Source: an uncultured Enterobacteriaceae bacterium
GTDB taxonomy: Bacteria > Myxococcota_A > UBA796 > GCA-2862545
Reading direction: 5' to 3'
NCBI GenBank assembly: GCA_964419905.1
Contig: CAYQSE010000010.1
Span: forward strand, 1-56,987
Length of the DNA stretch: 56,987 nt
The translations under genes were made by a program, and so were the position numbers. The notes under the pieces were generated by a model. The model saw only the letters and a program-made list of their open reading frames with translations, searched no databases and had not been told where the DNA came from. Of this stretch, positions 4,758 through 51,958 are shown one piece after another (within the stretch, counting starts at the first letter, position 1; every line of letters begins with the position of its first letter).

Positions 4758-5372
4758 ATGCGCGACACCACCCCCCGACGCTTCGTCGCCGCCCTCGAGC
4801 GGCTCACCCCTCCCCAGCTCGCCGCTGGCGCGCTCGCGCTCGTGTGCGGGCCGCTGATCGGCACGGTCTGGGCCACCGGCGCGCTCGACGCGGTGCTGAT
4901 CGTGGCGTCTGCGCTCGGCGCGCTCGGCGCGGGCGCGCTCGCCCTGCATCGCCGCCGGCTCGACGCGCTGCCGCTGGAGCTCTCGCCGGTCGCCCTCGCC
5001 ACGACCGAGCGCGGGCATCGCGTGTACCGGTTCCGCGCGCGCCTCGGGCACGGACGGGTGCTGCGCGCCGTGGGCCACGAGGTCCGCTTCGAGCTCCCGG
5101 ACGGCTCGATGCTCACGCTCCCCACCGCCATCCCTCACCTCTCGGCCGTGGTGGGGCCGTGGACGATCCTGGTCGATGACGGGCCGGGGCTGTGCGACCG
5201 GCCTGGCGTGTTCCGCGTGCGGGCGTGGGGTCGGGAGGGCGCGCGGACGTGGGAGACCGAGCGCGTCTATCCGCGCGAGGCGCTCCAGCCGGGGCGGTTC
5301 GCGCGGCCGGCGGAGCGGTGGCGCGGTCGGCTCGCGCTCTCGCCGGACTGGGACGCGGTGGAGCCGGCGTGA
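4758..5372 (+). CDS. hypothetical membrane protein
   Basis: ATG at 4758. The N-terminus has two hydrophobic helices (LAAGALALVCGPLIGTVWATGALDAVLIVASALGALGAGALAL). The stop overlaps the next gene start (GTGA). No recognisable domain. Confidence 0.45.
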   Translation: MRDTTPRRFVAALERLTPPQLAAGALALVCGPLIGTVWATGALDAVLIVASALGALGAGALALHRRRLDALPLELSPVALATTERGHRVYRFRARLGHGRVLRAVGHEVRFELPDGSMLTLPTAIPHLSAVVGPWTILVDDGPGLCDRPGVFRVRAWGREGARTWETERVYPREALQPGRFARPAERWRGRLALSPDWDAVEPA

Positions 5373-6856
5373 GCCCGATCCTCCTCGCGACGACGCTCGC
5401 GCTGGGGCCGATGGACCTGGTTCGGGTCGACGATCCCGACTTCCCGGGCGCGGACGCCGTGTCCGCGACCGGCGCGGTGCTGCTCGCGCCCCCGCCGCCC
5501 GGCGTGCCGTGGCGGTGGGAGGCGGTGCCCGAGACGACCGCCGCGCCCGCCGTCGAGGCGCTCGACGCGATGCAGGTGCAGGGCTGGCACGACGCGGGGT
5601 TCACCGGCGCGGGCGTGAAGGTCGCGGTGTTCGACCTGCAGTGGTTCGGGGTCGAGGCCGACGCGGCGACGCTCGCGCCGTTCACGACGCACGACTGCTA
5701 CCTCACACCCACCTGCGAGGCGCCGATGGACACCTGGCGTCCGCGCTTCGGCTTCGAGGAGGGCGCGCACGGTCACGCCTGCGCGCAGGTGATCCGCGAC
5801 ATCGCGCCCGACGCGATGCTGCACCTGGTGCGGGTGAACACGAGCACGACGCTCGAGAACGCGGTGGACTGGGCGATCCGCGAGGGCGTGCACGTGGTGA
5901 GCATGTCGCTGTCGTTCTTCAACACGAGCTTCTACGACGGCACGGGCTTCGTGTCGGCCCAGATCGACAAGCTCGCGCGCGCGGGCGTGCTGCCGGTGGT
6001 CAGCGCGGGCAACTACGCGAGCGCGCACTGGCACGGGCCGTACGCCGACACCAACCACGACGGGCGCATGGACCTCGACGGCGGCGACGGGCTGTGGGTG
6101 AACCTGCCGGTGGGTGGGGTCCGGGGGCTGTTCGTGAACTGGAACCAGCACCGCTCGTGCGGGCTGACCGACCTGGACGCCTACCTCTACGACGCGGCGG
6201 GCAACCGGGTCGGCGGCTCGGAGGACGTGCAGCAGGTCGGCGCGGACCGCTGCGCGCCGGTGGAGCGGCTGTCCGGCATGGTCACCGAGGCGGGCTGGCA
6301 CCGGCTCGAGATCGTGCACCGGCGCGGCGCGCGCGTCGCGCTCGAGGTCGACGTGCTCGCGACGAGCGGTCGCGTGTTCGAGGGGCACCCCGGCGGCTCG
6401 ATCGCGGATCCGGGCTCGGCGGCGGGCGCGTTCACCGTCGGCGCGGTGCGGGCGCGCGGCTACCTCACCAACGACGTCGCGTCGTACTCGTCGCGGGGCC
6501 CCACCTCGGACGGCCGCGAGAAGCCCGACATCGCGGGCCCGGACGGGCTGACCACCGTGTCCTACGGGCTCGAGGGCTTCTTCGGCACCTCGGCGGCGGC
6601 GCCCGCGGTGGCGGGCCTGGTCGCGCTGGTCCTCTCGGAGGATCCGAGCCTGACGCCCCGCGCTGCCGCCGCGCGCCTCCAGGGGTGGGCGATCGGCGCG
6701 CCGCGCGCGCCCTGGCGAGGCGATCCGCGCTGGGGTGCGGGGAAGGCCCGTCTGCCGTCGGAGCCCGAGCCGGTGGGATGCGGACGGCGCCCCCTCCTGC
6801 TCCCGTTGTGGCTGCCGCCGCTGTTCCTGCTGCGCCGCCGCGTCGGTGCGCGGTAG
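5369..6856 (+). CDS. S8 family subtilisin-like serine peptidase with MYXO-CTERM-like C-terminal sorting tail
   Basis: HGHACAQV (catalytic His) and GTSAAAPAVAGLVAL (catalytic Ser, GTSxAAP) motifs. The C-terminus GCGRRPLLLPLWLPPLFLLRRR resembles the MYXO-CTERM Cys-Gly/hydrophobic/Arg-cluster tail. Start GTG 5369 overlaps the upstream stop; alternative ATG at 5411. Confidence 0.8.
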   Translation: MSPILLATTLALGPMDLVRVDDPDFPGADAVSATGAVLLAPPPPGVPWRWEAVPETTAAPAVEALDAMQVQGWHDAGFTGAGVKVAVFDLQWFGVEADAATLAPFTTHDCYLTPTCEAPMDTWRPRFGFEEGAHGHACAQVIRDIAPDAMLHLVRVNTSTTLENAVDWAIREGVHVVSMSLSFFNTSFYDGTGFVSAQIDKLARAGVLPVVSAGNYASAHWHGPYADTNHDGRMDLDGGDGLWVNLPVGGVRGLFVNWNQHRSCGLTDLDAYLYDAAGNRVGGSEDVQQVGADRCAPVERLSGMVTEAGWHRLEIVHRRGARVALEVDVLATSGRVFEGHPGGSIADPGSAAGAFTVGAVRARGYLTNDVASYSSRGPTSDGREKPDIAGPDGLTTVSYGLEGFFGTSAAAPAVAGLVALVLSEDPSLTPRAAAARLQGWAIGAPRAPWRGDPRWGAGKARLPSEPEPVGCGRRPLLLPLWLPPLFLLRRRVGAR

Positions 6857-6857
6857 G

Positions 6858-9080
6858 ATGCCGTCCGTGCATCGGCGCCTCCCCATCGCGATCGGCAGCG
6901 TGCTCCTGGCCGCCTGCGTCTCTCCGGGCGCGGTCGAGCCCGTGGGCGCGGCGTTCTCGCTGTGGGAGGTCGACGGGTACGCGGTCGATGACCGAGCCGG
7001 CGGGGTGCCCCTGCCCGTCCTCGTGCGCGCGGTCAACGCGTGGAGCGCGCCGGTCCCCGACGCGTCCGCGCGGGTCCGCGTCGGCGCCGACGCGGTCGAC
7101 ATCCCGCTGGACGCCTACGGCTACGGGACGGCGTGGGTCGTGGCGCCCGGATCGATCGAGGTCGCCGCCGGAGGTGCGCGCGCCACCGCGCACGCCACCG
7201 ACGCGGCAGTCGCACCGCTGGCGCTCTCGGGGGCCGCGCCGCCCGCCGGCGAGCTGATCGGCGCAGTGGCGGGTGCGCGCGGCGCGCTCGTCGCGACCGC
7301 GGACGCCGTGTCGTTCGTCGCGCTCGACGGGTCGCGCCACGAGGTGCTGCGTCCGCCGGGCGGCGGCATCCAGGGGCTGCACGCCGCCCATCTCGATCAC
7401 GACGGGGTGATCGACGCGGTCGTGTGGACGAGCGACGTGGTCGTCGGGCTGCGGGGGCGTCCGGGCGGCGGCGCGGGCTGGTCGTTCGGGCTGCGCGCGG
7501 ATGGCTGGGCGGTCGGTGGGGTGGCGGTCGGCGACCTGAGCGGCGATGGCCTGCCCGACGTCGCCGTCGCGTGGGTCGACGGCGCGCGCACCACGGTCGA
7601 GGTGTTCGAGGCGCTCGGGCTGGAGCGCTACGAGGCCGCGGGGGTGGTGCAGGTCAGCGCGCGCGTGGTCGGGCTGGCCGTTGGCGACGCCGACGGCAGC
7701 GGGACCGCACAGCTCACCGCGATGCGTCTCGACGGCGAGTGGTCGCGGATCGCGCGCGGTCCCGGCGGGACGTACGGCCACGTCGGGCCCTCGTGGCCCC
7801 AGCTTCAGATCGCGGCCGAGACGGGGACGCGGCCCGCGAGCGAGGGCGACTTCGACGGCGACGGCGGGGCCGAGGTGTTCCTGTTCGGGCCGCGTGCCGC
7901 CGGCGTCGAGCGCGTCGTGCAGGTCTGGGGTCTGCTCGGTGATCCGCCCACCGTGTTCCAGCTCTCGGCGACGGGGGCGTTCGTCGACCTCGCGGACGCC
8001 CAGGGCGACGGCCTGATCGACCTGTGGCTGCTCGACGAGCACGGGGAGCTCACGGTGCTCACCCGCGCCGAAGGGCTCAACACCCGCCGCAGGGTGGCCA
8101 CGCTGCCCGAGTCCGGCCCGCTCGCGCTGTTCGATCAGGACGGCGATCGACGCCCGGAGCTGTTCGTCGCGGGCGGCACGCTGTGGACCTGGCGCGACGG
8201 GGCCGCGCACCCGACCGATCCGTGGACCGAGGCCGAGGCCGACGTGCTGCGGTTCCCGGTCGGCGCGCGTGCGGCGGTCGTCGCGGGTGATCTCGACGCG
8301 AACCCCGACAACCTCGAGGTCGCGACGCTCGGGTGGACGGACGACGGGGCCGTCGTGTCGCTGTTCCGCCTCGCGGTGGGCGCGACGCCGACCCTCACGC
8401 TGGTGGACACGATCCTCCTCTCGTCGACCGGGGAGCCGCGCGATCTGGCCCTGTGCGGCTCCACGATCTACGCACTGGCCGACGACGCGCTCGCCGCGTT
8501 GACGTTCGCCGGCGGCGTGAGCGAGGCGGTGCAGGCGGGCGGAGACCACGTCGCGTGCGGCGTCGGAGCGAACGGCGCGCGGGTCGCGGTGGCGGACGCG
8601 AGCCGGATCGAGCTTCGCGATGCCGGTCTCTCGGTCGTCGAGCAGCGCGAGGTGGGCGCGCACGGGCTCGCGTTCGTGGGCGCGGGGGTGAGCGACGCGC
8701 TCGCGGTGTGCGACGCGCCGGGCTGCGGGGTCGTCGGCTGGGCGTGGTCCGCGGTCGGCGGCCCGGTCGTCGCCCGCACCGAGGCGGGCGGGATCACGGT
8801 CGAGGTCGAGCCGGCCGCGCGGCTGGACGGCGCCGGGGCGCTGCTCACCGGCGACGTCGACGGCGACGGGAACACCGACCTGATCGCCGCGTCGGGCGAG
8901 TGGATCGCGGTCTACCTGTCCACGGGCGAAGGCTTCGGCGTCGGGCGATCGTTCCGCGCGCCGCGCCCGGTGGTGGGGCGTCCAGTGGCGGTCGACGCGA
9001 CCGGCGACGGGGCGGACGACCTGCTGTGGATCGACGACGCGGGCGATCTGGTCCTGTCTCGGCGCGGCGGCGCATGGTGA
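6858..9080 (+). CDS. FG-GAP/integrin-alpha-like repeat lipoprotein
   Basis: Lipoprotein signal MPSVHRRLPIAIGSVLLAAC. Repeated GDLSGDGLPDVAVAW, GDFDGDGGAEVFLF, GDVDGDGNTDLIAA, DATGDGADDLLWID (FG-GAP calcium-binding loops). The ATG is 1 nt after the protease TAG. Confidence 0.75.
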   Translation: MPSVHRRLPIAIGSVLLAACVSPGAVEPVGAAFSLWEVDGYAVDDRAGGVPLPVLVRAVNAWSAPVPDASARVRVGADAVDIPLDAYGYGTAWVVAPGSIEVAAGGARATAHATDAAVAPLALSGAAPPAGELIGAVAGARGALVATADAVSFVALDGSRHEVLRPPGGGIQGLHAAHLDHDGVIDAVVWTSDVVVGLRGRPGGGAGWSFGLRADGWAVGGVAVGDLSGDGLPDVAVAWVDGARTTVEVFEALGLERYEAAGVVQVSARVVGLAVGDADGSGTAQLTAMRLDGEWSRIARGPGGTYGHVGPSWPQLQIAAETGTRPASEGDFDGDGGAEVFLFGPRAAGVERVVQVWGLLGDPPTVFQLSATGAFVDLADAQGDGLIDLWLLDEHGELTVLTRAEGLNTRRRVATLPESGPLALFDQDGDRRPELFVAGGTLWTWRDGAAHPTDPWTEAEADVLRFPVGARAAVVAGDLDANPDNLEVATLGWTDDGAVVSLFRLAVGATPTLTLVDTILLSSTGEPRDLALCGSTIYALADDALAALTFAGGVSEAVQAGGDHVACGVGANGARVAVADASRIELRDAGLSVVEQREVGAHGLAFVGAGVSDALAVCDAPGCGVVGWAWSAVGGPVVARTEAGGITVEVEPAARLDGAGALLTGDVDGDGNTDLIAASGEWIAVYLSTGEGFGVGRSFRAPRPVVGRPVAVDATGDGADDLLWIDDAGDLVLSRRGGAW

Positions 9081-9155
9081 GCCCGGGATCGCTGCTGAAG
9101 CCGGGCCGCGACCCGGGCCGGGCGTCATTTTCCGGTCGCTTGTGGCGCGACCGGC

Positions 9156-9185
9156 TTGACCATGGAGGGGTGGAGCGCCTATATG
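9156..9185 (+). promoter_or_regulatory. sigma70-like promoter: -35 TTGACC (9156-9161), 17-18 nt spacer, -10 CTATAT/TATATG (9179-9185)
   Basis: AT-rich island in a 70% GC context. GGAGAG RBS at 9214-9219 and ATG at 9225 follow. Confidence 0.4.
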
Positions 9186-9224
9186 TGCCCACTTCATACT
9201 TGGGCCCCCTCGTGGAGAGCTGAA

Positions 9225-10379
9225 ATGCTGCGCTCGTTCACTCCCCTCCTGCTGCTGGTCGCGGCGGCCTGTGCGCCCCAGAACGCGCAGCTCACCGAAG
9301 GCCAGTACACGGCGTTCATGCCGCTCCGTAGCTCCCGCACGCTGTTCGAGGGCCGGATCAAGCCCGAGAACGCCGACGAGAGCTGGGCCGTCGACTGTCG
9401 GAACGATCCCCCGATCCCCGGCGCGCTCGACATCTGCGACAGCCGTCAGACCTGGCCGCCCGTTCACGAGCAGTGGCTGGTCCGCGACGCCTACCAGGTG
9501 ATCTCCGAGCCGCTCGATCCGTGGCGCGGCGAGGCGATCATCACCTCGGAAGGCGACATGCAGGTCACCTTCCACCAGCGGCTCCCGGGCGGTCCCGACT
9601 TCTTCTTCGCCTTCGTCGTCAACCCCGACTTCTACCCGACGCGCTGCACGCAGGACGCCGACGGCGAGCTGGTTCGGGTGCCGATCGACGGCGAGGACTG
9701 GCTCGAGAAGTGGTCCGAGGATGTCGACAGCGGCACGCTGTACTACCTGAACTCCGGCGCCTACCAGTTCGACCCGACCGCGACCGATCGCGTGTGGGCG
9801 CTGCCGCAGGAGTGGCGCGCGGGCTTCTCGTCCGCCCGCTTCGGCGCCGAGGATCTCTCGATCCGCCGCATCCGCTACGGCCTGCCGAGCGCCTACACCT
9901 CGTTCGAGTCCGAGGAGACCGAGCTCGATGCGGCCGCCCTGTTCTACACGGACATGGACGTCGGCACCGATCCGACCACCTACGGGCCGTTCCAGGAGCA
10001 GATCGCCCGGGTGGAGGGCGTGGCCGAGGCGGTCACCGAGGAGCTCACCAACGTGAACCTCACGCACTTCGCGCCGCGGGTCCACACCAACGAGTGGCGC
10101 GCGCCCGACGGTCTGCCGTCTGGCATCGATTCCTGGGTCGAGCTGCACTATGCGTGGGTTCACTTCGATGATGGCGCCGATCTCGCGGTCGGCGGCTCGG
10201 CATCGGGCTCGTTCGCGCTCGTCTACGACGCGCAGACCTCCCAGACCCGTGTGTTCGTGACCGGCTCGTTCGAGATCCCGCGCATCAAGCGCGATCGCTG
10301 GGTCACCGACGACGTTCGCGCGGCGAAGTTCGAGGAGTCCGGCACCACGCTGTGCGGCCTCACACCGGACCAGCTCTAG
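9225..10379 (+). CDS. hypothetical lipoprotein
   Basis: MLRSFTPLLLLVAAAC lipobox signal. No recognised domain. The 3' end overlaps the convergent methyltransferase by 20 nt. Confidence 0.6.
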   Translation: MLRSFTPLLLLVAAACAPQNAQLTEGQYTAFMPLRSSRTLFEGRIKPENADESWAVDCRNDPPIPGALDICDSRQTWPPVHEQWLVRDAYQVISEPLDPWRGEAIITSEGDMQVTFHQRLPGGPDFFFAFVVNPDFYPTRCTQDADGELVRVPIDGEDWLEKWSEDVDSGTLYYLNSGAYQFDPTATDRVWALPQEWRAGFSSARFGAEDLSIRRIRYGLPSAYTSFESEETELDAAALFYTDMDVGTDPTTYGPFQEQIARVEGVAEAVTEELTNVNLTHFAPRVHTNEWRAPDGLPSGIDSWVELHYAWVHFDDGADLAVGGSASGSFALVYDAQTSQTRVFVTGSFEIPRIKRDRWVTDDVRAAKFEESGTTLCGLTPDQL

Positions 10380-11148
10380 CCGCGTCGTCGCGCGGCGCGG
10401 TCACCAGGACCCACTTCGTGGCGTGCGCGTTCAGCGCGCGCCCATGGAAGTCGCTCGCCTCGGCGATCACCTCGAAGCCGGCCCAGTCGAGGAGCGCGCG
10501 GAGCTCCTGCGGGTAGAACATCCGCAGGTCCAGGTGCACCTCGTGCGGGGCTCCGTCTCCGCGGTCGTAGACGTAGTGGACATGGTGGATCTGCGTCAGG
10601 GGATCCCAGGCGCTCTGCTCCCACGACGCGATCGTCTCGCCGTCGCGCGGGTCGATGAACGTGCGCTCGCCGTAGCGTTGCGCCGGGTCGCGCGCGTAGA
10701 GCTCGGGGAAGGGCAGGTACATGTCGAACGCGAACCGTCCCCCGGGCAGCAGCACCTCGCGCACGCCTCGCAGCAGCGCGAGCACGTCGCGGTGGTCGCG
10801 GCAGTGGTGGATCGTGTTGAACGGCAGGATCACCAGCGGGTAGCGCGGCGGGCCCGAGAGCTGTCGGAAGTCGCCCCGCTCGACGTGCAGCCGGCTCCGC
10901 ACGGCGTCGGGCTGCGCGTGCCGCTTCCGCTCCAGGTCGGCCAGCATGCCCGGGTTCGCGTCGACCCCGTGCACCTCGACCCCCGACTGCGCGATCGCGA
11001 GCGTGATCCGGCCGTTGCCGCAGCCGAGCTCGAGCACCGGGCCGCCGACACGCTGCGCGAGCCCGATGTAGTACGGGATGTCCTCGAGGTGGTCGGCATA
11101 CTCGAGGTCGTAGTGCAGCGGGCTCGCGTACGGATCGTCGTTGGGCAT
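10360..11148 (-). CDS. class I SAM-dependent methyltransferase
   Basis: VLELGCGNGRITLAIA (glycine-rich SAM motif I). Acidic motif II and motif III follow, ending at VLLPGGRFAFD. ATG at 11148. Confidence 0.8.
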   Translation of the reverse strand: MPNDDPYASPLHYDLEYADHLEDIPYYIGLAQRVGGPVLELGCGNGRITLAIAQSGVEVHGVDANPGMLADLERKRHAQPDAVRSRLHVERGDFRQLSGPPRYPLVILPFNTIHHCRDHRDVLALLRGVREVLLPGGRFAFDMYLPFPELYARDPAQRYGERTFIDPRDGETIASWEQSAWDPLTQIHHVHYVYDRGDGAPHEVHLDLRMFYPQELRALLDWAGFEVIAEASDFHGRALNAHATKWVLVTAPRDDAARAGPV

Positions 11149-11223
11149 GACGCGGAGCATGGCACGGCGCCGCGCGCCTCGCGACGGCGGTTGAGGTAGA
11201 GAGGGTGCTCGGCGTACCCTCGG

Positions 11224-12861
11224 ATGGCTTACCTCGGCGTAGGGAGCGAGCGCTTGTCAGGTCTGCTTCGCATCGACGGCCACACGCTCGACCTGTCCGA
11301 CGTCGTCTCCGTGGCGCGACAGTCGCGCGGCACCGTGCTCGACGCGGACGCGCGGACGCGGATGGAGGCCAGCTGCGCGTGGGTCGAGCAGGTCGCGGCG
11401 GGTGCGATCCGCGACGCGGACGGGGCGCCCCTCTCCGTCTACGGCGTGAACACCGGGTTCGGCTCGCTCGCGCGGATCGCGATCGACGGCAGCCAGAGCC
11501 GCATGCTGTCGTGGAACCTGATGCAGTCGCACGCCGCGGGCGTAGGGCCGCGGGTGGCGCCGGACGTCACCCGCGCGATGATGCTGCTGCGCGCGAACGC
11601 GCTCGCGAAGGGGGCCTCGGGCTGTCGCCCCGCGCTGGTCGAGACGATCCTCGCGATGCTCGATCGCGACGTCGTGCCCGAGGTGCCTTCCCAGGGCTCG
11701 TGCGGCTCGTCCGGCGACCTCGCGCCGCTCGCGCACCTGGCCCTCGTCGTGTTTCGTGGGCCCGAGGAGGAGGGCGACAGCGGGTGGGCGTGGCATCGCG
11801 GCGAGCGCCTGCGGGGCGCGGACGCGATGGCGCGCGCGGGCATCCCGCGCCTCGTGCCGCAGCACAAGGACGGGCTGGCGATGTGCAACGGCAGCCAGCT
11901 GACCACCGCGTACGCGACGCTGGCATGCGAGGACGCGGCGCTGCTGCTTCACGCCGCCGAGATCGCCGCCGCGATGAGCTGGGAGGCGCTGCGTGGGGTC
12001 ACCCGCTGCCTGCTGCCCGAGGTGCACGCGCTGCGCCCCTACCCAGGCAGCCAGGCGGTCGCCGCGGATCTGACCCGGCTGCTCGAGGGCAGCGCGCTGA
12101 CCGACTCGCTGCCGGGCAAGGTGCAGGACGCCTACGCGCTGCGCTGCACGCCCGAGGTGCTCGGCGCGGTGCGCGACGCGATGCGCTATGCGCGCTCGCA
12201 GGTGCGCGTCGAGCTGAACGCCGCGACCGACAACCCGCTGGTGCTGCTCGGGCTCGACGACGCGAACAAGGCGGTCTCGGCGGGCTTGTTCCACGGCGAG
12301 CCGGTCGGGATGGCGTGCGACCACCTCAAGCTCGCGCTGTGCGAGCTCGGCGCGCTCTCGGAGCGGCGCACCTATCGGCTGACCACCGGCTCGCTCTCGG
12401 CGCGCCTGCCCGCGGCGCTGGTGCGCTCGGATCGACCCGGCATGGGGCTGATGGTGCCGCAGACGACCGCCGCGGCGCTGGTGAGCGAGAACCGCTCGCT
12501 CGCCTGGCCGGCGTCGGCCGACTCGATCCCGACGTGCGAGGACCAGGAGGATCACGTCGCGATGTCGACCACCGCCGCGCGACGGGCCGCCGAGGTCGCG
12601 CGCAACGCCCGTCGGATCGTCGCGGTGGAGCTGCTGGCTGCGGCGAGCGGGCTGTGGTGGCGGCAGGCCGAGGAGGGGGTGACGACGCTCGGGCGCGGCA
12701 CTCGCGCGGCTCTCGCGGTGATCGAGGCCGCGATCGGGCGCACCGGCCTCGGGGCGCCGTCCGAGGAGATCGCTGCGCTCGACGAGGTGCTCGTGCGCGG
12801 AACCCTCGTCGCGGCGGTGCAAGACGCGATCGGGCCGCTTCGTGGGGTGGATGATGCCTGA
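11224..12861 (+). CDS. histidine/aromatic amino acid ammonia-lyase family protein with Ser-Ser-Gly at the MIO position
   Basis: YGVNTGFGSLA (Tyr loop), GSCGSSGDLAPLAHL (MIO segment, canonical ASG replaced by SSG), NPLV, and full-length HAL architecture. Confidence 0.85.
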   Translation: MAYLGVGSERLSGLLRIDGHTLDLSDVVSVARQSRGTVLDADARTRMEASCAWVEQVAAGAIRDADGAPLSVYGVNTGFGSLARIAIDGSQSRMLSWNLMQSHAAGVGPRVAPDVTRAMMLLRANALAKGASGCRPALVETILAMLDRDVVPEVPSQGSCGSSGDLAPLAHLALVVFRGPEEEGDSGWAWHRGERLRGADAMARAGIPRLVPQHKDGLAMCNGSQLTTAYATLACEDAALLLHAAEIAAAMSWEALRGVTRCLLPEVHALRPYPGSQAVAADLTRLLEGSALTDSLPGKVQDAYALRCTPEVLGAVRDAMRYARSQVRVELNAATDNPLVLLGLDDANKAVSAGLFHGEPVGMACDHLKLALCELGALSERRTYRLTTGSLSARLPAALVRSDRPGMGLMVPQTTAAALVSENRSLAWPASADSIPTCEDQEDHVAMSTTAARRAAEVARNARRIVAVELLAAASGLWWRQAEEGVTTLGRGTRAALAVIEAAIGRTGLGAPSEEIAALDEVLVRGTLVAAVQDAIGPLRGVDDA

Positions 12862-14335
12862 TCCGATCGGGATCGACGGCGGCTCGCTCACCTGTGCCCC
12901 GCTGGCCGCGGTCGCCGCCGGCGCGCCGGTGGCGCTCGACGAGGCCGCGCGGGCGCGCATGGAGGAGAGCGCCGCGTGGTACCGCGCTCAGGGCATCCCC
13001 AACGTGCTCCGGGCGAAGTGGTCGATCCTGGTGGGTGGTGCTGCGCCCGAGGACGACGCGCGTCTGATCCGGGACTTCGTGCTCGGGCACTGCGCGGGCG
13101 TCGGCGACCCGCTGCCGCCCGAAGCCGTGCGCGCGACGATGCTCGCGCGCGCCAACGTGCTGGCGACCGGCGCCTCGGGCGCGAGGGCCCGCTGTGTCGA
13201 TGTGCTGCTCGCGATGCTGAACGCCGGCGTCGTGCCGGTGGTGCCCGCGCAGGGCTCGGTGGGCGCGGCGGGCGACCTCGCGCCGCTCGCGCACATCTGC
13301 AGGGTCGCGTGCGGGTGGGGGGGCCAGGCGTGGCGCGACGGCGTGCTGCGCCCGGCGGCCGACGCGATGGTCGGGCTGCCGCGCATGGCACCAGACGACA
13401 AGGAGGCGCTGTCGCTGATCAACGGCGCGACGCTGACGGCTGCGCTCGCGGCGCTGGCGTGCGTCCGTGCGGAGCGACTGCTCGAGACCGCCGAGTCGGC
13501 GTGTGCGCTGTCCTTCGAGGTGAACCGCGCCGACCTCGGCTGCCTGCACCCGCGCGCGCTCGCTTCGCGCCGGCACCCCGGCGGGGTGCGGGTCGCGACG
13601 CGGCTCGCGGCGCTGCTCGACGGCAGCGCGCTGGTGCACTTCGGCCGCCGACCCGATCCGTTCTCGGTGCGCTGCGCGCCCGCGGTGCTCGGCGCGGCGG
13701 TCGATGCGCTCGCCTACGTGCGCGGGATCGTGGAGGACGAGCTGAACGGCGCGTGCGACAACCCGCTCGTGTTCCCGGACGCCGGCGTGTTCGAGGCGGG
13801 CAACTTCCATGGCGCGCCGACCGCGCTCGCGATGGACCACCTGAAGGTGGCCCTCGTGCAGGTCGCCTCGATCGCCGAGCGGCGCGTGTTCCGGATGACC
13901 TATGGCCAGCTCTCGGGGCTGCCGAGCTATCTCGCGCGCGACAACGGTATGAACAGCGGCCTGATGCTCGCGCAGTACACGGCGGCGTCGCTGGTCAGCG
14001 AGTGCAAGGGCAAGGCGTTCCCCGCCTCGGTCGACTCGATCCCCACGATTCAGCACTACGAGGACCACGTCTCGATGGGGCCGATCGCGGCCCGCGGCGC
14101 GCTCGACATCCTGGAAGCGGTGGCCGACGTGCTCGCCATCGAGCTGATCTGCGCGGCCCAGGGGCTCGAGTTCCACGGCCCGGAGCGGGCCGCGCCGGCG
14201 ACGCGCGCGCTGCATGCGGCCGTGCGGGAGGAAGTCGCGCCGTGGGATCGCGACCGCGCGCTGTACCCGGATCTAGACGCGATCGGGGCCGCGGTGCGCG
14301 CCGGACGCTTCACGCACGCGCCCGGGCCGTGGTGA
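12851..14335 (+). CDS. ammonia-lyase-like paralog lacking MIO serine (Ala-Ala-Gly), probable non-catalytic subunit
   Basis: GSVGAAGDLAPLAHI replaces ASG. The N-terminal YG.NTGFG Tyr-loop is missing. The C-terminal HAL fold is conserved (NPLVF, IPTIQHYEDHVSMG). The start overlaps the upstream stop (ATG 12851/12854, GTG 12842). Confidence 0.8.
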   Translation: MMPDPIGIDGGSLTCAPLAAVAAGAPVALDEAARARMEESAAWYRAQGIPNVLRAKWSILVGGAAPEDDARLIRDFVLGHCAGVGDPLPPEAVRATMLARANVLATGASGARARCVDVLLAMLNAGVVPVVPAQGSVGAAGDLAPLAHICRVACGWGGQAWRDGVLRPAADAMVGLPRMAPDDKEALSLINGATLTAALAALACVRAERLLETAESACALSFEVNRADLGCLHPRALASRRHPGGVRVATRLAALLDGSALVHFGRRPDPFSVRCAPAVLGAAVDALAYVRGIVEDELNGACDNPLVFPDAGVFEAGNFHGAPTALAMDHLKVALVQVASIAERRVFRMTYGQLSGLPSYLARDNGMNSGLMLAQYTAASLVSECKGKAFPASVDSIPTIQHYEDHVSMGPIAARGALDILEAVADVLAIELICAAQGLEFHGPERAAPATRALHAAVREEVAPWDRDRALYPDLDAIGAAVRAGRFTHAPGPW

Positions 14336-15566
14336 GCGGGGCGCCAGCGCTCGACCACGTCGGTGCCCACCGCAGCAGCCACATCGCCGACAGCGCGGTG
14401 AACGCGACCAGGAGCACGGCCCACGGCGCGGCGGGAGGCCACGCGATCGCCCACGCGAGCGCGAGGGAACCGACCGCGCCGAGCCGAAACGCCTCGGACG
14501 GCACCGCCCAGGCGCGATGCTCGAACAGCCCGCCCCAGTTCAGGGTCGCCCACACGATCGCCGCGGCGGCGGGCGCGAGCAGCGTCCACGGCGCGGTCTC
14601 CTCGACCCACAGCACGGTGGTCACCGCGATGGCGACCACGCCGAAGTGCGCGAGCACGTAGGGCGCGAGACCCGGCGCGGTCGGCGTGTCGAACTTCACG
14701 AACGTCTCGGGCGAGACGTCGGCGGGCCCAGGCAGCGCCGGGCGCCCGGGCGCGCGCCACTCGGGCGGTCGGAAGAACACCCCGATCTTGTCGACCCAGC
14801 GCTCGGACTCCCGCGCCTCGCGCAGCAGGTACGCCCAGTGCTCGAAGTTCGCCCACACCGGGTTCCACGACGAGAACCGCTTGATCGTGCCGTAGCAGGC
14901 GGGCTCGGTCTCGGGCTCGAACGTGCCGAACAGGCGGTCCCAGACGATGAGCACGCCAGCGTAGTTCTTGTCGACGTAGCGGGGGTTGATGCCGTGGTGG
15001 ACGCGGTGGTGCGACGGCGTGTTCAGCACCCACTCGAGCGGACCGAGGCGCCGCACCGTCTCGGTGTGGATCCAGAACTGGTACAGCGTGTTCAGCGCGT
15101 CGTTCACCAGATAGACCACCGGCGGGATGCCGAGTAGCGCGAGCGGCCACGCGAACGGCGCGTGCGTGGCGCTGCTGAACCACGCCTGGCGCAAGGCCAC
15201 CGCGAGGTTGTAGTCCTGGCTCTGGTGGTGCGGGACGTGGGTGGCCCAGACGAGATGGACGCGGTGGCTCGCGCGATGCCAGGCGTAGTACGCGAGGTCG
15301 ACGAGCAGCGCCGCGAGCACCCACACCGCCCAGTGCCCGGCGGGCAGATCGAACAGGCGCACGCTGTCGTAGATCGCGATGTAGCCGGCGAACACCGCCA
15401 CCTTGAGGAACACGCCCACGACCTGGCTGCCGATCCCGCAGGACAGGTCGGTGATCGCGTCGTTGAGCCGGTAGACCCGTCGCCCCTGCCAGCGAGACAC
15501 GAGCAGCTCGACCCCGATGAGCAGGAAGAACAGCGGGATCGCGACGGCGATGAGGTTGATCTCCAC
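14310..15566 (-). CDS. fatty acid hydroxylase / sterol desaturase superfamily membrane enzyme
   Basis: Three His boxes: WHRASHRVH, HVPHHQS, HHRVHHG. Hydrophobic N-terminus and a Trp-rich C-terminal membrane extension. GTG start at 15566 with GAGGAGG RBS. Confidence 0.8.
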   Translation of the reverse strand: MEINLIAVAIPLFFLLIGVELLVSRWQGRRVYRLNDAITDLSCGIGSQVVGVFLKVAVFAGYIAIYDSVRLFDLPAGHWAVWVLAALLVDLAYYAWHRASHRVHLVWATHVPHHQSQDYNLAVALRQAWFSSATHAPFAWPLALLGIPPVVYLVNDALNTLYQFWIHTETVRRLGPLEWVLNTPSHHRVHHGINPRYVDKNYAGVLIVWDRLFGTFEPETEPACYGTIKRFSSWNPVWANFEHWAYLLREARESERWVDKIGVFFRPPEWRAPGRPALPGPADVSPETFVKFDTPTAPGLAPYVLAHFGVVAIAVTTVLWVEETAPWTLLAPAAAAIVWATLNWGGLFEHRAWAVPSEAFRLGAVGSLALAWAIAWPPAAPWAVLLVAFTALSAMWLLRWAPTWSSAGAPLTTARARA

Positions 15567-15636
15567 CTGGCCTCCTCGGGCGAGATGACGGATCCGTCCG
15601 CGTCGCGATAGGGTACGCGCCGCGATGGAGGGTGGT

Positions 15637-16662
15637 GTGAAGAGTTTGCTTGCAAGCCTGATCGTCGCGATGTCGCTGGTCGGCTGCGCGCGGAGCCTTC
15701 CCCCCAACGTCGCGCCGGATGGGCAGGTCAAGGCGGTGACCGCGGACGGCTGGGTGCTGCCGCTGCGGCACTACGCGGGCCCGGGCGCGCCGGTGCTGCT
15801 CGTTCACGGGATGGGCGCGAACCACTACAACTGGGACTACCGCGACGAGGTGTCGCTCGCGGTCTACCTGCAGGAGGAAGGGTTCGACGTGTGGGTGCCG
15901 GAGCTTCGCGGTGATCCGGGCGCACGCCCGCCGTCGCGCGCCGCCGCGCGCTCGTTCTCGTTCGACGCGCACGCGGACTACGATCTGCCGGCGGTCGTCG
16001 ACGCGGTGCGTGAGGTCACCGGCGCCGATCAGGTCGCTTGGGTCGGCCACAGCATGGGCGGGATGCTCCTCTACACCGCGCTCGTCCGCTACCCGGAGAA
16101 GATCTCCGCGGGCGTCGCGGTGTGCTCGCCGGGCGAGCTGACCACGCTCGGACCGCTGCAGCGCAGCGTGCGCGGGCTCGGCTGGGCGGTGCGGGGCGAC
16201 GGGCTGATCCGCTCGACGGGCCTCGTGAAGCTCGTCGCGCCGCTCGGGCGAGCCAACCCGCTCTACGGCAAGCTCGCGAACCGCGCCAACCTCGACTATC
16301 CGGTGGCCAACGGGCTCGCGCGGCACGCGCTCGTCGACATGACGCGCCCGATGGCGCGACAGGCGACCACCTGGGTCAAGCGCCGCACCATCGTGCGCGA
16401 GGACGGCACGCCGTGGTTCCCCACGCTCGACGCCCAGGTGCCGACCTTGCTGCTCGGTGGCTCGGTCGACAAGATCGTGCCGGAGCCCAATGTCGCTGCG
16501 ACCTGCGCGCGGATGGCCGACTGCACCTACCAGGTGCTCGGTACCGCTGGAGGGCTGTCCACCGAGTACGGTCACGTCGACCCGATCGTCGGCCGTACGG
16601 CGCGAGACGAGGTCTACCCGCTGATCGGATCGTTCCTCGCGGGCCACGTCGTCAGGCCCTGA
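15637..16662 (+). CDS. alpha/beta hydrolase lipoprotein
   Basis: MKSLLASLIVAMSLVGC lipobox (GTG 15637 after GGAGGG; alternative ATG 15625). HGMGANHY oxyanion region and GHSMGG nucleophile elbow. Confidence 0.75.
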   Translation: MKSLLASLIVAMSLVGCARSLPPNVAPDGQVKAVTADGWVLPLRHYAGPGAPVLLVHGMGANHYNWDYRDEVSLAVYLQEEGFDVWVPELRGDPGARPPSRAAARSFSFDAHADYDLPAVVDAVREVTGADQVAWVGHSMGGMLLYTALVRYPEKISAGVAVCSPGELTTLGPLQRSVRGLGWAVRGDGLIRSTGLVKLVAPLGRANPLYGKLANRANLDYPVANGLARHALVDMTRPMARQATTWVKRRTIVREDGTPWFPTLDAQVPTLLLGGSVDKIVPEPNVAATCARMADCTYQVLGTAGGLSTEYGHVDPIVGRTARDEVYPLIGSFLAGHVVRP

Positions 16663-25188: not shown

Positions 25189-28100
25189 TCACTTCTGGCG
25201 GTACACGATCGCGTTCGCGATCTTCGCGGCGTCGTCCTGGCCCACGCGGCGCGCGGCGAGGTCCTCGTACAGCGCGTCGGACTCGCGCCTTCGCCGCACG
25301 CCGTCGTAGAAGTCGAGCGCCTGGAGCGTCCAGGCGCGGAGGCGATCCCAGCGGCTCGCCTCGGCGGTCGTGTGCAGTCCGCGCTCGCGCAGCGCGAGCA
25401 GCCCGCGCAGGCGGGTGACAGTGCGGGCCACCTCGGCGTCGAGCCCGGCGGTCTGCAGTCGACCGCTGTCGAGCGCGTCCTGGAGAGCCTGGACGGCGAT
25501 GCGCGTGTCGGCGACGCCATAGTTCGGATGTGCCGCGAGGGCGCGGACCCGATCGCGCAGCGTGTCGGGATCTACCGCGAGCAGGTCGGTGGTCAGCGTG
25601 AGGATGCGCTGCAGCGACAGCCAGCGGTACACGTAGTCGAGCCCGGTGCCCTTGATGTTGCAGCTGCCGAGGATGCGGAGATCGGCGCCCGGGGGGGCGA
25701 TCATCACGATGTTGTGCAGCACCTGGTCGCCGGTGAGCGCCGAGTTCGACAGCGGGCGCGCGCGGGCCTCCATCAGCGTGAGGAAGCCCTCGATGACGTG
25801 GCTCGCGTCCCAGGTCTCCTTGCGCGCGAGGTGATGCAGCCAGCCGGTCACCCGCAGCCACTGCTCGACGACCTGCGCCTTGGTGCGCCCGTCCTGCGCG
25901 GTGTCGCGCGCGTGGTGTCGCACGAGGGCTGCGGGTGCGGGGTTGTCGGTGTAGTAGGCCGCGATCCACCGGTCGACATCCGCGGGCTCGGCGCCGAACG
26001 CGATGCAGAGCGCGCGCGCTGGCTCGGGCGCTAGGGGCTGCCTTCGCAGGCGGCGGCCGATCTCGGCGATCAGGCGGGGCTTGTCGCTCGCCAGATCCTG
26101 CATCCGGTCGCGCAGATCGGTGTGCAGGAAGGTCACGTACGCCTGGTGGAACGGGATCACGTTCGTGCCGATCGTGACCAGCGCGTCGGCGGACACGTCG
26201 AGCGCTGCGATGCGCGCGAACACGCCCTGCCGCGCGAGCCGGTCGGCGCGGTTGTTCACGACCGTGATCGTGAACTGCCCGAGCCCTGCGTCCTCGGGCT
26301 GCTCGTCGAAGCCCATCCGCGCCCAGTTGGAGAGGAAGCCGGCGCGCTCGTTCGCGGACATGCCGTTCACGAAGCTGACGATGCGCCCGTCGTAGGGCAC
26401 CGGGCCATACTCCTTGAGCACGCCGAGGTCGGGCACGACGTGATCCGCCATCGCGCGCAGCGCGACATCGCGCTCGATGCCGAGCGCGCGGGCCATGCGC
26501 ACGACGAGCGCGATGTTGCGTGGGTGCTCGTTGTACGGGAACCGGGCGAGCAGGTCGCGCGGCAGCAGCAGCCACTCCTCGGGCGGCACCATCGTCAGGT
26601 CGCTGCCACGGCGCAGCGCCTGCTCGCGCAGGATGGGCGTCATGTGCTGCTCTGAGGTCAGCACCGTGCCGCCATACGGGATGAACCGCGAGATCACCTC
26701 GGCGACGTCGAGGCCCGACGGGCCCTGGATGTCCTCGTGGTCGGGGTAGGTGTTCGTGATCGTCGTCAGGTCGTCGCGTACCCAGTCCTGCTGAAGGATC
26801 TCGACGTACTGCGGGTTGAGCGCCATGCACTCCCACAGCAGCACCTGGGGACGCAGGTGGTAGGCGAGGCGCAGGACGTTGCGCTGCTCGAAGATCGTCG
26901 CCTTGTCGTAGGGGCGGTACAGGAAGATCTCGGTCGGCTCCCGACCCGGGATGCTGCTGACGACCATCGCCTCGCAGCCGGTGGTCTTCGAGAGCACCGA
27001 GTAGCCGAGCCCGTGGAAGATCGCGGCCTTGAGCCGCTCGGTGCCGGACTTGCCGCGCGAGCCCCACCCGCCGACGACGAGCGGGATCCCGTTGCGCCAC
27101 CGGGACTCGTTCGCGCGGCGGCCGACGCTGCGCCCGATCCAGTAGGCCATCATCGCCGCGCTCACCGCCGCGAGCTGGGGCACGGTGTTCGCGTCGAGCG
27201 CGAGCACCCGGTTGAACACGTCGTCGGCCATCACCAGGGGGAGGGTCGCGAGCTTCGTGCGGTCGATCTCGAGACCGAGCGCGCGGACCTCGGCGTCCCA
27301 AGCGCGCACCGGGTCGAGATCCGCGCCGCCGAGCAACCGCAGCCGGTGGTCGGCGAGCGCCGGGTAGCTGCGATGGATCGCGGCACGCACCCGCCACGGC
27401 GCCCGCGTCGGGCGGACACGGTAGCCGGAGCGGCTGGCCTGGACGTGGATTCCGCCGGGGCGCGCCGCGGCGAGCAGCGTGGAGGGCAGCGGCAGCTCCG
27501 CGCCCCAGTCCAGCCGGGTCGGCGTGCCCTGCCGCAGCCCCGGCACCAGCGTCGGGGTGACCTCGGCGAGCCGCTCGGACATCGCGACCAGCCGTCCGCG
27601 CGGCCACCGATCGGTCAGGAACGACCACGCCTGGCGCTTGTCGGGCCGAGGGCGCGCGAGCTCGTAGCCCATCCGCCACCAGGCGAAGCGTGGCGGTGCG
27701 CCGACGTAGATGGTGTAGCCGCGACGAGGGGGCTTGTCGGGCCCGTCGTCGCCGTGCGGCTCGGCGGACAGGTCGAAGCCGTCGGCGGCTGCGACCGAGA
27801 GCACCTCGAGCAGGGCGCTCGGAGACAGCGCGCCCAGCGCGCCGCGACGGAAGCGCTCGGACGCGCCCTCGGGCGCGGTCGCGAGCCAGTGATTCAGCTC
27901 GGTCAGCGCCGCGTCCGTCGCCGGATCCGCGTGGATCTGAAGCGCTCGACGAAGCGTGGCGGCGGCGTTGGCGAGGTCCGGATCCTCGTCGTGCGTGGCC
28001 CACCGGTCGAGCGCCGTGGCCCACTCGGCGGACGCGTGGGTGGCGTCCTCGGCGAGGGTGGGCAGCCGGTCGAGCACGGCGCGGATCACCAGCGCGGCCA

Positions 28101-50327: not shown

Positions 50328-51875
50328 TCAGCGCCCTCGGCCGCGGACGCCGGTCTCCTGGTCGAGCACCTGCAGCGTCTGCTTGTACAAGAACCGCGCC
50401 TGCTGCAGGTTGTCGCCGATCGCTACCACGCCCACCTTCCCGTACTCCGATAACGCTCCGATGAGGTGGAAGACGACCCCGCGCTCGGTGGGGCCGTGGA
50501 AGTGCAGCCCATGGTAGACCGCGATGTCGATCAGGTCGTCGGGCATCAGGCCGCGGTAGCGACGCTCCTGGATGGTGTCGGTCGCGAAATAGTACTTCGG
50601 ACGCCCGGAAGGCGAATAGAACAGCCCGTCGCCGGGATGGAACTCGCCCGCCGTCAGGAACTTCAGCGTGAGGAAGGGGTGGGTGGTGCCACCCTTACGC
50701 AGGTTGATCTCGATCGCGGAGTGCTTCCACCCGGCATCGGTCTTCACCGAGACGTAGTCGATGCCGAACCGTCCGATCACGCCGTGCCGCGCGAGCACGG
50801 CGGCCACCTTGGCGGCTGAGTCCTGGATGTCGAGGCGATACGCGGGCGCGGCCGGAAACGTGCACCCGAGGAAGACCTGCCCGGACGGCCCGCCGAGCAC
50901 CTGATCGTGCGTCGAGATCACCTGCGGCTCGCCGATCGGGTTCACGCGGCACTGCGCCGACGGTGAGGTCTTGTGGGCGCCCTCGACGAACGCCTCGACC
51001 ACGCCGCCCATCTCCTGGTACTTCGCGGCGAACGACTCCCAGCGCTCGTCGGGGGCCTCGAACCGGAGGTCCGGCAGTCGGTCGAGGATCGCGCGCGCAA
51101 GCCCCGGATCGGAGGGATCGAGGCCCTCGTAGCGAAAGATCGCGTTGCCCTCGCCAGAGAAGCCCTCGTTGAGCTTGACCACCGCGCGGCTCGCGGTGGG
51201 ATCGTGGCGGTAGACCTCGACGAGCGCGCCCGCGATGTCGTCGGGCGTGCTCAGGCGCTCGAAGCCGAACGGCATCTCGACGCCCGCCTCGCGGAACACC
51301 TCGCGGCAGCCGCTCTTCGTGCCGAGGAAGTTGAGCTGTGGATCGACCGAGTTCAGCGGGATCCCGAGCCGCACCGCGAGCGTGCGCTCGAACGGGCTGG
51401 AGTTGAAGCAGACCATGTGCGCGCGGGACACGTCGCCCAGCTCGAGGCGCAGCCGCTCCAGCAGGCGCGGGCGCTCCAGGATCTTCTCGGTCAGGCACCG
51501 CTCGCTCGAGCCGTCGGCGCAGTCGAGCAGCACCAGCCGCTTGCGCGCGTGGCTGCTCGGCACGCCCGGCAGCAGCGCCAGGTAGTAGTCGACCACCGTG
51601 GGGTGGAGCTGCTGGCTCGTGACGTAGATCAACTTGGTCCGCGGCTGGCGGAGCAGCATCAGGTTCACGAGCATCCGCTCTTCGTAGTGGATCACCCCGC
51701 TGACCTTGCGCAGCTCGCGCGGATCGAGCGAGAGCGACGGCACGATCAGCACCGCCTGCGGGGTGCGCGGATCGCTTCCGAGCGCGTGGAACAGCGCGGG
51801 GACGCGCTCTTGGAGTTCGTGGAACGCCCGGATCTCCTCGGGCGAGCCGGGCGCGGGCCAGGGGGGTACCGTCAT
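50328..51875 (-). CDS. ATP-grasp superfamily protein, PGM1-like
   Basis: VVKLNEGFSGEGNAIF and RFGIDYVSVKTDAGWKHSAIEINLRKGGTTHP (ExN Mg site) suggest an ATP-grasp fold. The stop abuts the ftsH ATG. ATG 51875; the track ORF extends upstream. Confidence 0.7.
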   Translation of the reverse strand: MTVPPWPAPGSPEEIRAFHELQERVPALFHALGSDPRTPQAVLIVPSLSLDPRELRKVSGVIHYEERMLVNLMLLRQPRTKLIYVTSQQLHPTVVDYYLALLPGVPSSHARKRLVLLDCADGSSERCLTEKILERPRLLERLRLELGDVSRAHMVCFNSSPFERTLAVRLGIPLNSVDPQLNFLGTKSGCREVFREAGVEMPFGFERLSTPDDIAGALVEVYRHDPTASRAVVKLNEGFSGEGNAIFRYEGLDPSDPGLARAILDRLPDLRFEAPDERWESFAAKYQEMGGVVEAFVEGAHKTSPSAQCRVNPIGEPQVISTHDQVLGGPSGQVFLGCTFPAAPAYRLDIQDSAAKVAAVLARHGVIGRFGIDYVSVKTDAGWKHSAIEINLRKGGTTHPFLTLKFLTAGEFHPGDGLFYSPSGRPKYYFATDTIQERRYRGLMPDDLIDIAVYHGLHFHGPTERGVVFHLIGALSEYGKVGVVAIGDNLQQARFLYKQTLQVLDQETGVRGRGR

Positions 51876-51958
51876 GCAACGATCATACCCAAAGCTGGCG
51901 GCGTCGGGCTGCGGGTCGGCGTGGGTTGCGGCTATGTTCTCGCCCCGGAGGAGGACGC

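Follow-up and report, generated by a model that had tools for sequence, protein, structure and literature searches.

A conserved pair of histidine ammonia-lyase paralogues, one with and one without the MIO serine and the catalytic tyrosines, encoded by overlapping genes in uncultured bacteria

Introduction

Two overlapping genes of the histidine ammonia-lyase (HAL) family on contig CAYQSE010000010.1 (GenBank assembly GCA_964419905.1) raise the question of what a protein with the HAL fold might do once the residues of HAL catalysis are gone, and why it should be encoded directly behind a relative in which they are kept. The genes, here called alpha and beta in the order in which they are read, lie in a stretch of 56,987 nucleotides that was analysed as a whole and is referred to below as the window. 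Enzymes that depend on 4-methylideneimidazole-5-one (MIO) as their prosthetic group, including HAL, phenylalanine ammonia-lyase (PAL), tyrosine ammonia-lyase (TAL), and the aminomutases, are known from textbooks as homotetramers and are of importance in biocatalysis, and PAL serves as a drug for phenylketonuria. The MIO ring is formed from the side chain of the central serine of an Ala-Ser-Gly triad together with the backbone of the flanking residues. An earlier note on this DNA drew attention to a Ser-Ser-Gly triad in the first gene and an Ala-Ala-Gly triad in the second, and proposed that the latter cannot give rise to MIO. It suggested either a heteromer of an active subunit with a pseudo-enzyme or a chemistry independent of MIO.

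The comparison of homologous sequences and loci favors a functional partnership between alpha and beta, because the two genes are nearly always found together, their junction is of a kind that couples translation, and beta is under purifying selection. Alpha has the residues expected of an MIO enzyme with a histidine-type pocket, while beta amounts to a canonical HAL scaffold surgically stripped of the MIO serine and of its two catalytic tyrosines. Unless a position is given as that of alpha or beta, residues are numbered as in P. putida HAL.

Catalytic residues of alpha

Alpha matches PF00221 over its full length (E 5.6e-154, 513.7 bits, cutoff 27.3), can be aligned end to end with solved HALs, and finds its best sequence match in HutH. 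HMMER alignments to the HALs of P. putida (1gkm), T. acidophilum (7tqr), and T. cruzi (6v6h) place the triads of both alpha and beta exactly, and without gaps, on the Ala-Ser-Gly/MIO position. The earlier note had asked whether correction of an indel might restore an Ala-Ser-Gly; this check was run, and no serine of beta stands in register. The ungapped alignments around the triad exclude an indel or register error as the source of the unusual triads. A one-off mutation or a sequencing error is likewise excluded by invariance across the families, as seen in 120 homologues of each protein and in 110 gene pairs.

A search of 5.8 billion proteins recovered well over 100 close homologues each of alpha and beta. 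All 120 alpha homologues compared have Ser-Ser-Gly at the triad, as the earlier note had read for alpha itself, together with the tyrosine in the tyrosine loop, and all catalytic residues are invariant (Ser-Ser-Gly, Asp145, Tyr53, His83, Asn195, Gln277, Tyr280, Arg283, Phe329, and Glu414). The triad lies in the context GSCG-SSG-DLAPL, in which a cysteine replaces the usual valine ahead of the triad. Alpha is further set apart by several insertions, by changes in the "LSARLP…MVPQTT" loops, and by a C-terminus that has diverged, and at these places it is beta that looks canonical. Alpha scores 485.3 bits against the hutH equivalog model TIGR01225, which is under the cutoff of 539.15.

The first residue of the triad is free to vary, because only the backbone of the flanking residues enters the MIO ring. 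Ser-Ser-Gly is present in three of the 23 single-copy canonical HALs recovered, and the two of these that were scored, both from Ignavibacteria, reach 657 and 688 bits with the HutH equivalog model, above the 539 cutoff. It also occurs in 10 of the best 150 family representatives from a library of 1.84 billion proteins. Ser-Ser-Gly is probably an ordinary variant and no obstacle to MIO formation in alpha. The suggestion that such a triad may be functional, made in the earlier note on the strength of the retained central serine, is supported by the invariance of that serine and of the other catalytic residues in alpha, and by the occurrence of the triad in HALs that pass the HutH model. The accompanying statement that MIO enzymes require Ala-Ser-Gly proved too strict for the first position.

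Losses and retained residues in beta

Beta is a single PF00221 domain matched over its full length (E 5.8e-134, 447.7 bits, cutoff 27.3). It also scores under the TIGR01225 cutoff (451.5 bits), with HutH still the best match in both sequence and structure. Two tyrosines, TyrA and TyrB, are essential in HAL, PAL, and TAL (PMC5573973). In beta the loop that would carry TyrA is replaced by the segment VLRAKWSIL, which agrees with the loss of the tyrosine loop described in the earlier note, and the second essential tyrosine, which the note did not mention, is gone as well: Tyr280 is changed to Phe. Two other changes missing from that description are Gln277 to Pro and Glu332 to Ala. The triad, in the context GSVG-AAG-DLAPL, offers no central serine, and beta is predicted, in line with the note, to be unable to make MIO.

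These losses characterize the whole beta family. Among 120 beta homologues, a central triad serine is never found (0/120), the triad follows the pattern [A/V][A/G]G, and Asp145 is usually deleted. Not one of the sequences has the tyrosine loop; Phe stands at position 280 in 119 of them and Pro at position 277 in 100. At the Gly58 position of the replaced loop, the family has an invariant lysine. By contrast, His83, Asn195, Arg283, Asn313, Phe329, and the Glu414-Asp-His motif are retained in beta, and the imidazole-binding His83 and Glu414 are invariant in both proteins. The roles of residues in imidazole and carboxylate binding are assigned after the literature (bioRxiv 10.1101/2025.08.13.670108).

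Of the positions with at least 87% conservation among canonical HALs that alpha has also kept, only six differ in beta: Tyr53 and Gly54 are deleted, Gly58 is changed to Lys, Ser143 to Ala, one further Gly to Ala, and Tyr280 to Phe. On the other hand, 55 alignment positions are common to alpha, beta, and canonical HALs. It is because so few conserved positions have switched against so many kept that the losses in beta are read as surgical removal from an otherwise canonical scaffold.

Pairing of alpha and beta across genomes

The pairing was examined in two scans, each anchored independently on one of the partners. The beta profile was run against 185,579 species genomes and gave 56 testable beta loci; the alpha profile, run against metagenomes, gave 68 testable alpha loci. 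Alpha lies directly upstream of beta in 53 of the beta-anchored loci, and beta directly downstream of alpha in 67 of the alpha-anchored ones. In the co-located pairs the division of residues is as strict as in the homologue sets: alpha has Ser-Ser-Gly in all 108 sequences that cover the site, and a central serine is found in none of 110 betas. Position 280 is Phe in 110 of 110, Gln277 is replaced by Pro or Ala, the lysine of the replaced loop is invariant, and His-Cys stands at the His83 position in 109 of 110.

The overlap of the two genes recorded in the earlier note is present in the window (ATGATGCCTGA; Table 1), and a close junction is the rule elsewhere. Among 113 junctions, 67 are 4-nt overlaps (ATGA/GTGA), 11 are 8-nt overlaps, and 8 are 1-nt overlaps, and 109 (~96%) fall between an 11-nt overlap and a 7-nt gap. 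In the window, the ATG of beta sits 11 nt inside the 3′ end of alpha (8 nt for a second ATG); translation might instead begin at the GTG at 12842, which would give a protein of 497 aa. No third gene was found to be universally linked to the pair across the loci scanned, and for this reason alpha and beta are regarded as the functional unit.

The hosts of the pair are all uncultured metagenome-assembled genomes, with record titles that mostly name Myxococcota or "Deltaproteobacteria". Eight pair-bearing records (L012, L014, L019, L021, L035, L036, L042, and L048) name "uncultured Enterobacterales" or even "Klebsiella pneumoniae" in their titles, and two (L008 and L029) Alphaproteobacteria; "MYXO" is part of the isolate name given for L008. 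Such titles are probably taxonomic mislabels or the result of contaminated bins.

Divergence, constraint, and predicted fold

In a neighbor-joining tree, alpha, beta, and the 23 single-copy canonical HALs each form a monophyletic group. Mean identity is 38% between alpha and beta, 45% between alpha and canonical HALs, and 42% between beta and canonical HALs, while within the clades it reaches 62.5% for alpha and 56% for beta. Given this low identity between and higher identity within the clades, the duplication appears to be old and both copies well conserved.

Constraint on the two genes is equal, and for both the substitution ratio is far under 1. In the two least saturated genome pairs, in which both genes were compared, the Nei-Gojobori ratio of nonsynonymous to synonymous substitution rates (dN/dS) for alpha and beta is 0.092 vs 0.081 (L028/L149) and 0.053 vs 0.034 (L036/L148). 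Over all comparisons the beta values range from 0.03 to 0.4, matching those of alpha. An alignment of 117 beta sequences has 44 invariant columns and a mean column identity of 60%. An AlphaFold2 model of beta built from these 117 sequences is confident (predicted local distance difference test, pLDDT, 94.3; predicted template modeling score, pTM, 0.94) and superimposes on HAL and tyrosine aminomutase (TAM) crystal structures with template modeling scores (TM-scores) of 0.89-0.91, so that the HAL fold ascribed to the second gene in the earlier note is upheld by the model.

Neutral decay of a duplicate, in which beta would be an effectively functionless pseudogene, could claim the loss of three catalytic elements, yet it is effectively refuted and retains next to no probability, because more than 110 genomes have an unbroken open reading frame (ORF) for beta, the invariant columns and low dN/dS given above are those of a conserved gene, and the losses are surgical rather than scattered in a protein whose structure is confidently modeled.

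Gene arrangement and genomic context

The positions of both genes and of their diagnostic residues are collected in Table 1. The third-position G+C content (GC3) is 0.93, and the codon-position G+C pattern of both ORFs is typical of real genes. Upstream of the pair lies a divergently transcribed class-I methyltransferase gene (10360-11160), and downstream a gene of the fatty-acid-hydroxylase family (14310-15731, minus strand) converges with beta and overlaps its 3′ end by 26 nt (14310-14335). As both neighbors are oriented away from joint transcription with the pair, alpha and beta look like a two-gene operon. Scans for promoters and terminators gave nothing, which is the expected result at 72% G+C.

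Table 1. Position of alpha, beta, and their diagnostic residues in the window.
Feature	Position	Strand	Description and basis
Alpha, HAL-like gene	11224..12861	+	545 aa, full catalytic set; PF00221, ORF call
Alpha tyrosine loop YGVNTGFG	11440..11463	+	TyrA is Tyr73 (P. putida Tyr53); alignment and translation
Alpha MIO-precursor triad Ser162-Ser163-Gly164	11707..11715	+	Context GSCGSSGDLAPL; alignment and translation
Alpha TyrB, Tyr304	12133..12135	+	Tyr280 equivalent, within KVQDAYALRC; homologue alignment and translation
Alpha-stop/beta-start overlap ATGATGCCTGA	12851..12861	+	Translational coupling
Beta, HAL-fold paralogue	12851(ATG)..14335	+	494 aa; without MIO Ser, TyrA, TyrB
Beta VLRAKWSIL in place of the tyrosine loop	13004..13030	+	Lys56 invariant in family; modeled helix 52-60
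Beta Ala139-Ala140-Gly141 at the MIO position	13265..13273	+	Alignment to HALs; context GSVG-AAG-DLAPL
Beta Phe271 at the TyrB (Tyr280) position	13661..13663	+	Pro at the Gln277 position (RRPDPFSVRC); homologue alignment and translation

The methyltransferase gene is found near the pair in about 16 of about 140 loci, all of them closest relatives. Its product was considered as the source of a betaine substrate for an MIO-less lyase; this idea was dropped because of the restricted distribution of the gene. The best NCBIfam match of the methyltransferase is to a daptide-type methyltransferase of ribosomally synthesized and post-translationally modified peptides (103 bits, under the cutoff of 175). 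It is the last member of an upstream run (window 5192-11160) that comprises an S8 peptidase, an FG-GAP repeat protein, a protein of ~410 aa without a Pfam match, and the divergent methyltransferase, and that is syntenic in L002, L003, L005, L009, and others, again the closest relatives only. In L001/L061, L005, and L007, a homologue of the hydroxylase gene is likewise found a short way downstream of the pair. The ~410-aa protein, the FG-GAP protein, the S8 peptidase, and the fatty-acid hydroxylase were each rejected as a conserved third gene, as their synteny is restricted by lineage.

At the three beta loci without an adjacent alpha (L040, L046, and L058), the motif in the replaced loop is Lys-Arg rather than Lys-Trp, and three upstream gene clusters are common to the three loci. 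The L040 beta is flanked by ExbB/ExbD and Band-7 genes. The context of these loci (ExbB/ExbD, Band 7) was uninformative as a clue to function.

Elsewhere in the window, all on the minus strand, two large ORFs of 1586 and 1467 aa (25189-33545) have a gene-like codon bias; neither has a Pfam match at E<=1e-4, and their coordinates overlap, which makes the gene calls uncertain. A 995-aa protein with an N-terminal CapC domain (poly-gamma-glutamate synthesis) is encoded at 36399-39386, and an ATP-grasp/PGM1_C protein at 50328-51989. The CapC and ATP-grasp/PGM1_C genes may represent a polyglutamate- or peptide-ligase-type system.

The function of the pair

The explanation preferred here is a mixed tetramer in which alpha is an MIO-dependent lyase of histidine type and beta an obligate partner without catalytic activity. 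To this explanation, taken as a whole, we would give an even chance of being correct. In such a scheme, alpha would form MIO from Ser-Ser-Gly and act as an ammonia-lyase that makes urocanate and ammonia from L-histidine or from one of its close derivatives. The pocket of alpha is regarded as histidine-type because His83 and Glu414, which bind the imidazole, are kept together with the carboxylate clamp of Gln277, Arg283, and Asn313; a histidine or histidine-derivative substrate is proposed because the pocket is of this type, with His83, Glu414, and the Met382 motif. Beta would be an old paralogue in which the whole HAL fold and the greater part of the pocket lining survive but the MIO serine, the TyrA loop, and TyrB are gone. 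Its role would be that of a structural or regulatory, possibly ligand-binding subunit, similar to a "prozyme".

The proposal of a mixed tetramer follows from the way in which HAL active sites are built. Enzymes of the HAL family are tetramers by necessity and have four active sites, each composed of residues from three monomers (PMC11432326), and in AvPAL the TyrB equivalent is supplied by an adjacent chain (bioRxiv 10.1101/2021.06.06.447205). Alpha and beta could thus assemble into a mixed tetramer, for instance alpha2beta2, in which only the sites formed between alpha chains would turn over. This arrangement is favored by the near-obligate pairing, the translational coupling, the equal constraint, the intact fold of beta, and the surgical nature of its catalytic losses. 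A division of labor, in which the Glu404 loop of beta would complete the active site of alpha, was also considered and dropped, because AvPAL places the equivalent loop (446-455) in the chain that carries MIO, while TyrB and the 397-403 loop come from neighboring chains (bioRxiv 10.1101/2021.06.06.447205).

Several observations weigh against the mixed tetramer. Overlapping tandem genes are equally typical of enzymes that act consecutively in a pathway, and no fusion of alpha and beta occurs among the 113 pairs. The pairing also has exceptions: one of the 68 alpha loci (L140) is truly without beta, and the lone betas form one small subclade without an adjacent alpha. The role of alpha in histidine catabolism is unproven, since alpha falls short of the HutH equivalog cutoff and neither hutU nor hutI (urocanase and imidazolonepropionase), which usually but not necessarily accompany hutH, is present in the 57-kb window or in the gene tables of L001-L003. 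A canonical hutH was likewise absent from the window and from these tables. Finally, His80, Asn191, Arg274, Asn304, Phe319, and Glu404 of the beta pocket, along with Lys56 and Cys81, are invariant, which is more than a pure scaffold would need and hints at ligand binding or at a chemistry of its own.

The last of these points also speaks for the main rival, a somewhat unlikely alternative in which beta is an independent, homotetrameric enzyme that works without MIO and the two genes encode consecutive pathway steps rather than subunits. Beta would then carry out another reaction on molecules of the class that alpha handles, perhaps on the substrate or product of alpha; examples are a conjugate addition, isomerization, or hydration of an imidazole-acrylate by means of Lys56 and/or Cys81. 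Both residues are new and invariant at active-site positions, Lys56 where the tyrosine loop used to be and Cys81 beside the equivalent of His83, and the invariant pocket lining extends to Asp405 and His406 beside Glu404. Purifying selection on beta as strong as that on alpha, the existence of the lone-beta subclade, and the precedent of active MIO-less family members (ergothionase and histidine betaine lyase) would all fit such an enzyme. However, the characterized MIO-less members all keep the catalytic tyrosine and the Gln/Arg/Asn set, whereas beta has lost both tyrosines and Gln277, and a site of this composition is without precedent chemistry. Furthermore, the conserved motifs lie on the central helices of the tetramer core, where conservation may be structural. 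In its most developed form, which is unlikely, beta would be a new enzyme on the HAL scaffold that uses Lys56 and/or Cys81, within a histidine-type pocket, in place of MIO and the tyrosines and acts on the product of alpha or on a histidine derivative, for instance by isomerizing urocanate or by conjugate addition to it. The pair would in that case supply two successive steps by which uncultured Myxococcota make an imidazole metabolite.

A further alternative, which we regard as improbable, makes beta a non-catalytic sensor, buffer, or regulator that binds a histidine- or urocanate-like ligand and either cooperates with alpha without being a stoichiometric subunit or is only transiently engaged as an allosteric regulator of alpha. 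The retention of the imidazole binders (His and Glu) and of two of the three carboxylate binders (Arg and Asn), with loss of the catalytic groups, speaks for such a protein. The 4-nt overlaps, however, point to synthesis in roughly equal amounts, as is more usual for stable complexes, and the single PF00221 domain of beta is not accompanied by any DNA-binding or signaling domain.

Implications

As far as we can tell, a conserved module of an active and a dead paralogue is undescribed in the HAL family; a literature search on Ser-Ser-Gly and Ala-Ala-Gly triads, MIO-less HAL paralogues, HAL-like pseudoenzymes, and hutH1/hutH2 found no paper that describes the pair. If the mixed tetramer is real, the pair would be the first MIO enzyme of heteromeric composition, and beta the first pseudoenzyme subunit of the family. 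It would also be a natural test case for the number of working sites that a tetramer with four composite sites requires and for the influence of neighboring chains on those sites. If beta is active itself, the chemistry of the fold would extend past MIO catalysis and tyrosine-dependent trimethylamine elimination. The findings also yield a working rule for annotation: the names "histidine ammonia-lyase" and "aromatic amino acid lyase", under which public records now list members of the beta clade, are almost certainly wrong for them.

Comparison with known systems

The closest characterized relative of both proteins is HutH (P. putida HAL, PDB 1B8F/1GKM; TIGR01225), with which alpha and beta have in common His83, Glu414, and the motif in the Met382 region. 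Alpha has all of the catalytic residues of HutH, but differs in its Ser-Ser-Gly triad, the preceding cysteine (GSCGSSG), its insertions, and its divergent C-terminus, while beta is without the MIO serine, TyrA, and TyrB. HutH forms its homotetramer from a single gene product, whereas the alpha and beta genes are paired. In Pseudomonas, the work of Zhang and Rainey in 2007 reportedly described hutH1 and hutH2 paralogues in one locus, one of which is said to suffice for histidase activity. Unlike alpha and beta, hutH1 and hutH2 lie inside a full hut catabolic operon, and we know of no relation between them and the alpha and beta clades.

Among characterized PF00221 members, only the trimethylammonia-lyases lack the triad, namely ergothionase, the histidine betaine lyase Swoo_3913, and Shewanella SO_3057/SO_3299. 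These enzymes can dispense with MIO because trimethylamine is a good leaving group, and they retain the catalytic tyrosine, which accepts the beta-proton, as well as the Gln/Arg/Asn carboxylate binders (bioRxiv 10.1101/2025.08.13.670108). They resemble beta in that they are PF00221 proteins without Ala-Ser-Gly in which imidazole and carboxylate binders are retained, and they are nevertheless functional enzymes. Unlike beta, however, they keep the tyrosine and the glutamine, while beta is without the tyrosine loop, TyrB, and Gln277. The model of beta superimposes on ergothionase (PDB 6S7J) with a TM-score of 0.88 at a sequence identity of only 24%, and at the position of ergothionase Lys384, beta has a methionine. 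The trimethylammonia-lyases are also stand-alone, periplasmic proteins that are clustered with urocanate-type reductases and are not paired with an MIO-competent paralogue. Because TyrA, TyrB, Gln277, and the MIO serine are all lost, beta appears to have the defining features of neither the MIO enzymes nor the trimethylammonia-lyases.

In a search of family representatives, beta-type proteins account for only ~12 clusters at 50% identity, and the other triad-less PF00221 clades recovered all keep the tyrosine loop, which marks the beta family as compact and unusual. Some of the latter have Tyr280 changed to Leu and Gln277 to Arg; the representatives P0304, P0318, and P0307 have Ala-Cys-Gly triads, and in P0297, P0359, and P0387 the triad is deleted. 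These other clades may be further trimethylammonia-lyase-like or otherwise MIO-independent enzymes.

The closest parallels to the proposed role of beta come from prozymes, for which the trypanosomatid AdoMetDC/prozyme pair, the deoxyhypusine synthase heterotetramers, and HisZ with HisG are precedents. These systems belong to other folds and other taxa, and the alpha-beta complex is inferred only. Like alpha and beta, however, they combine a dead paralogue under purifying selection with an active one in proteins whose active sites lie at subunit interfaces.

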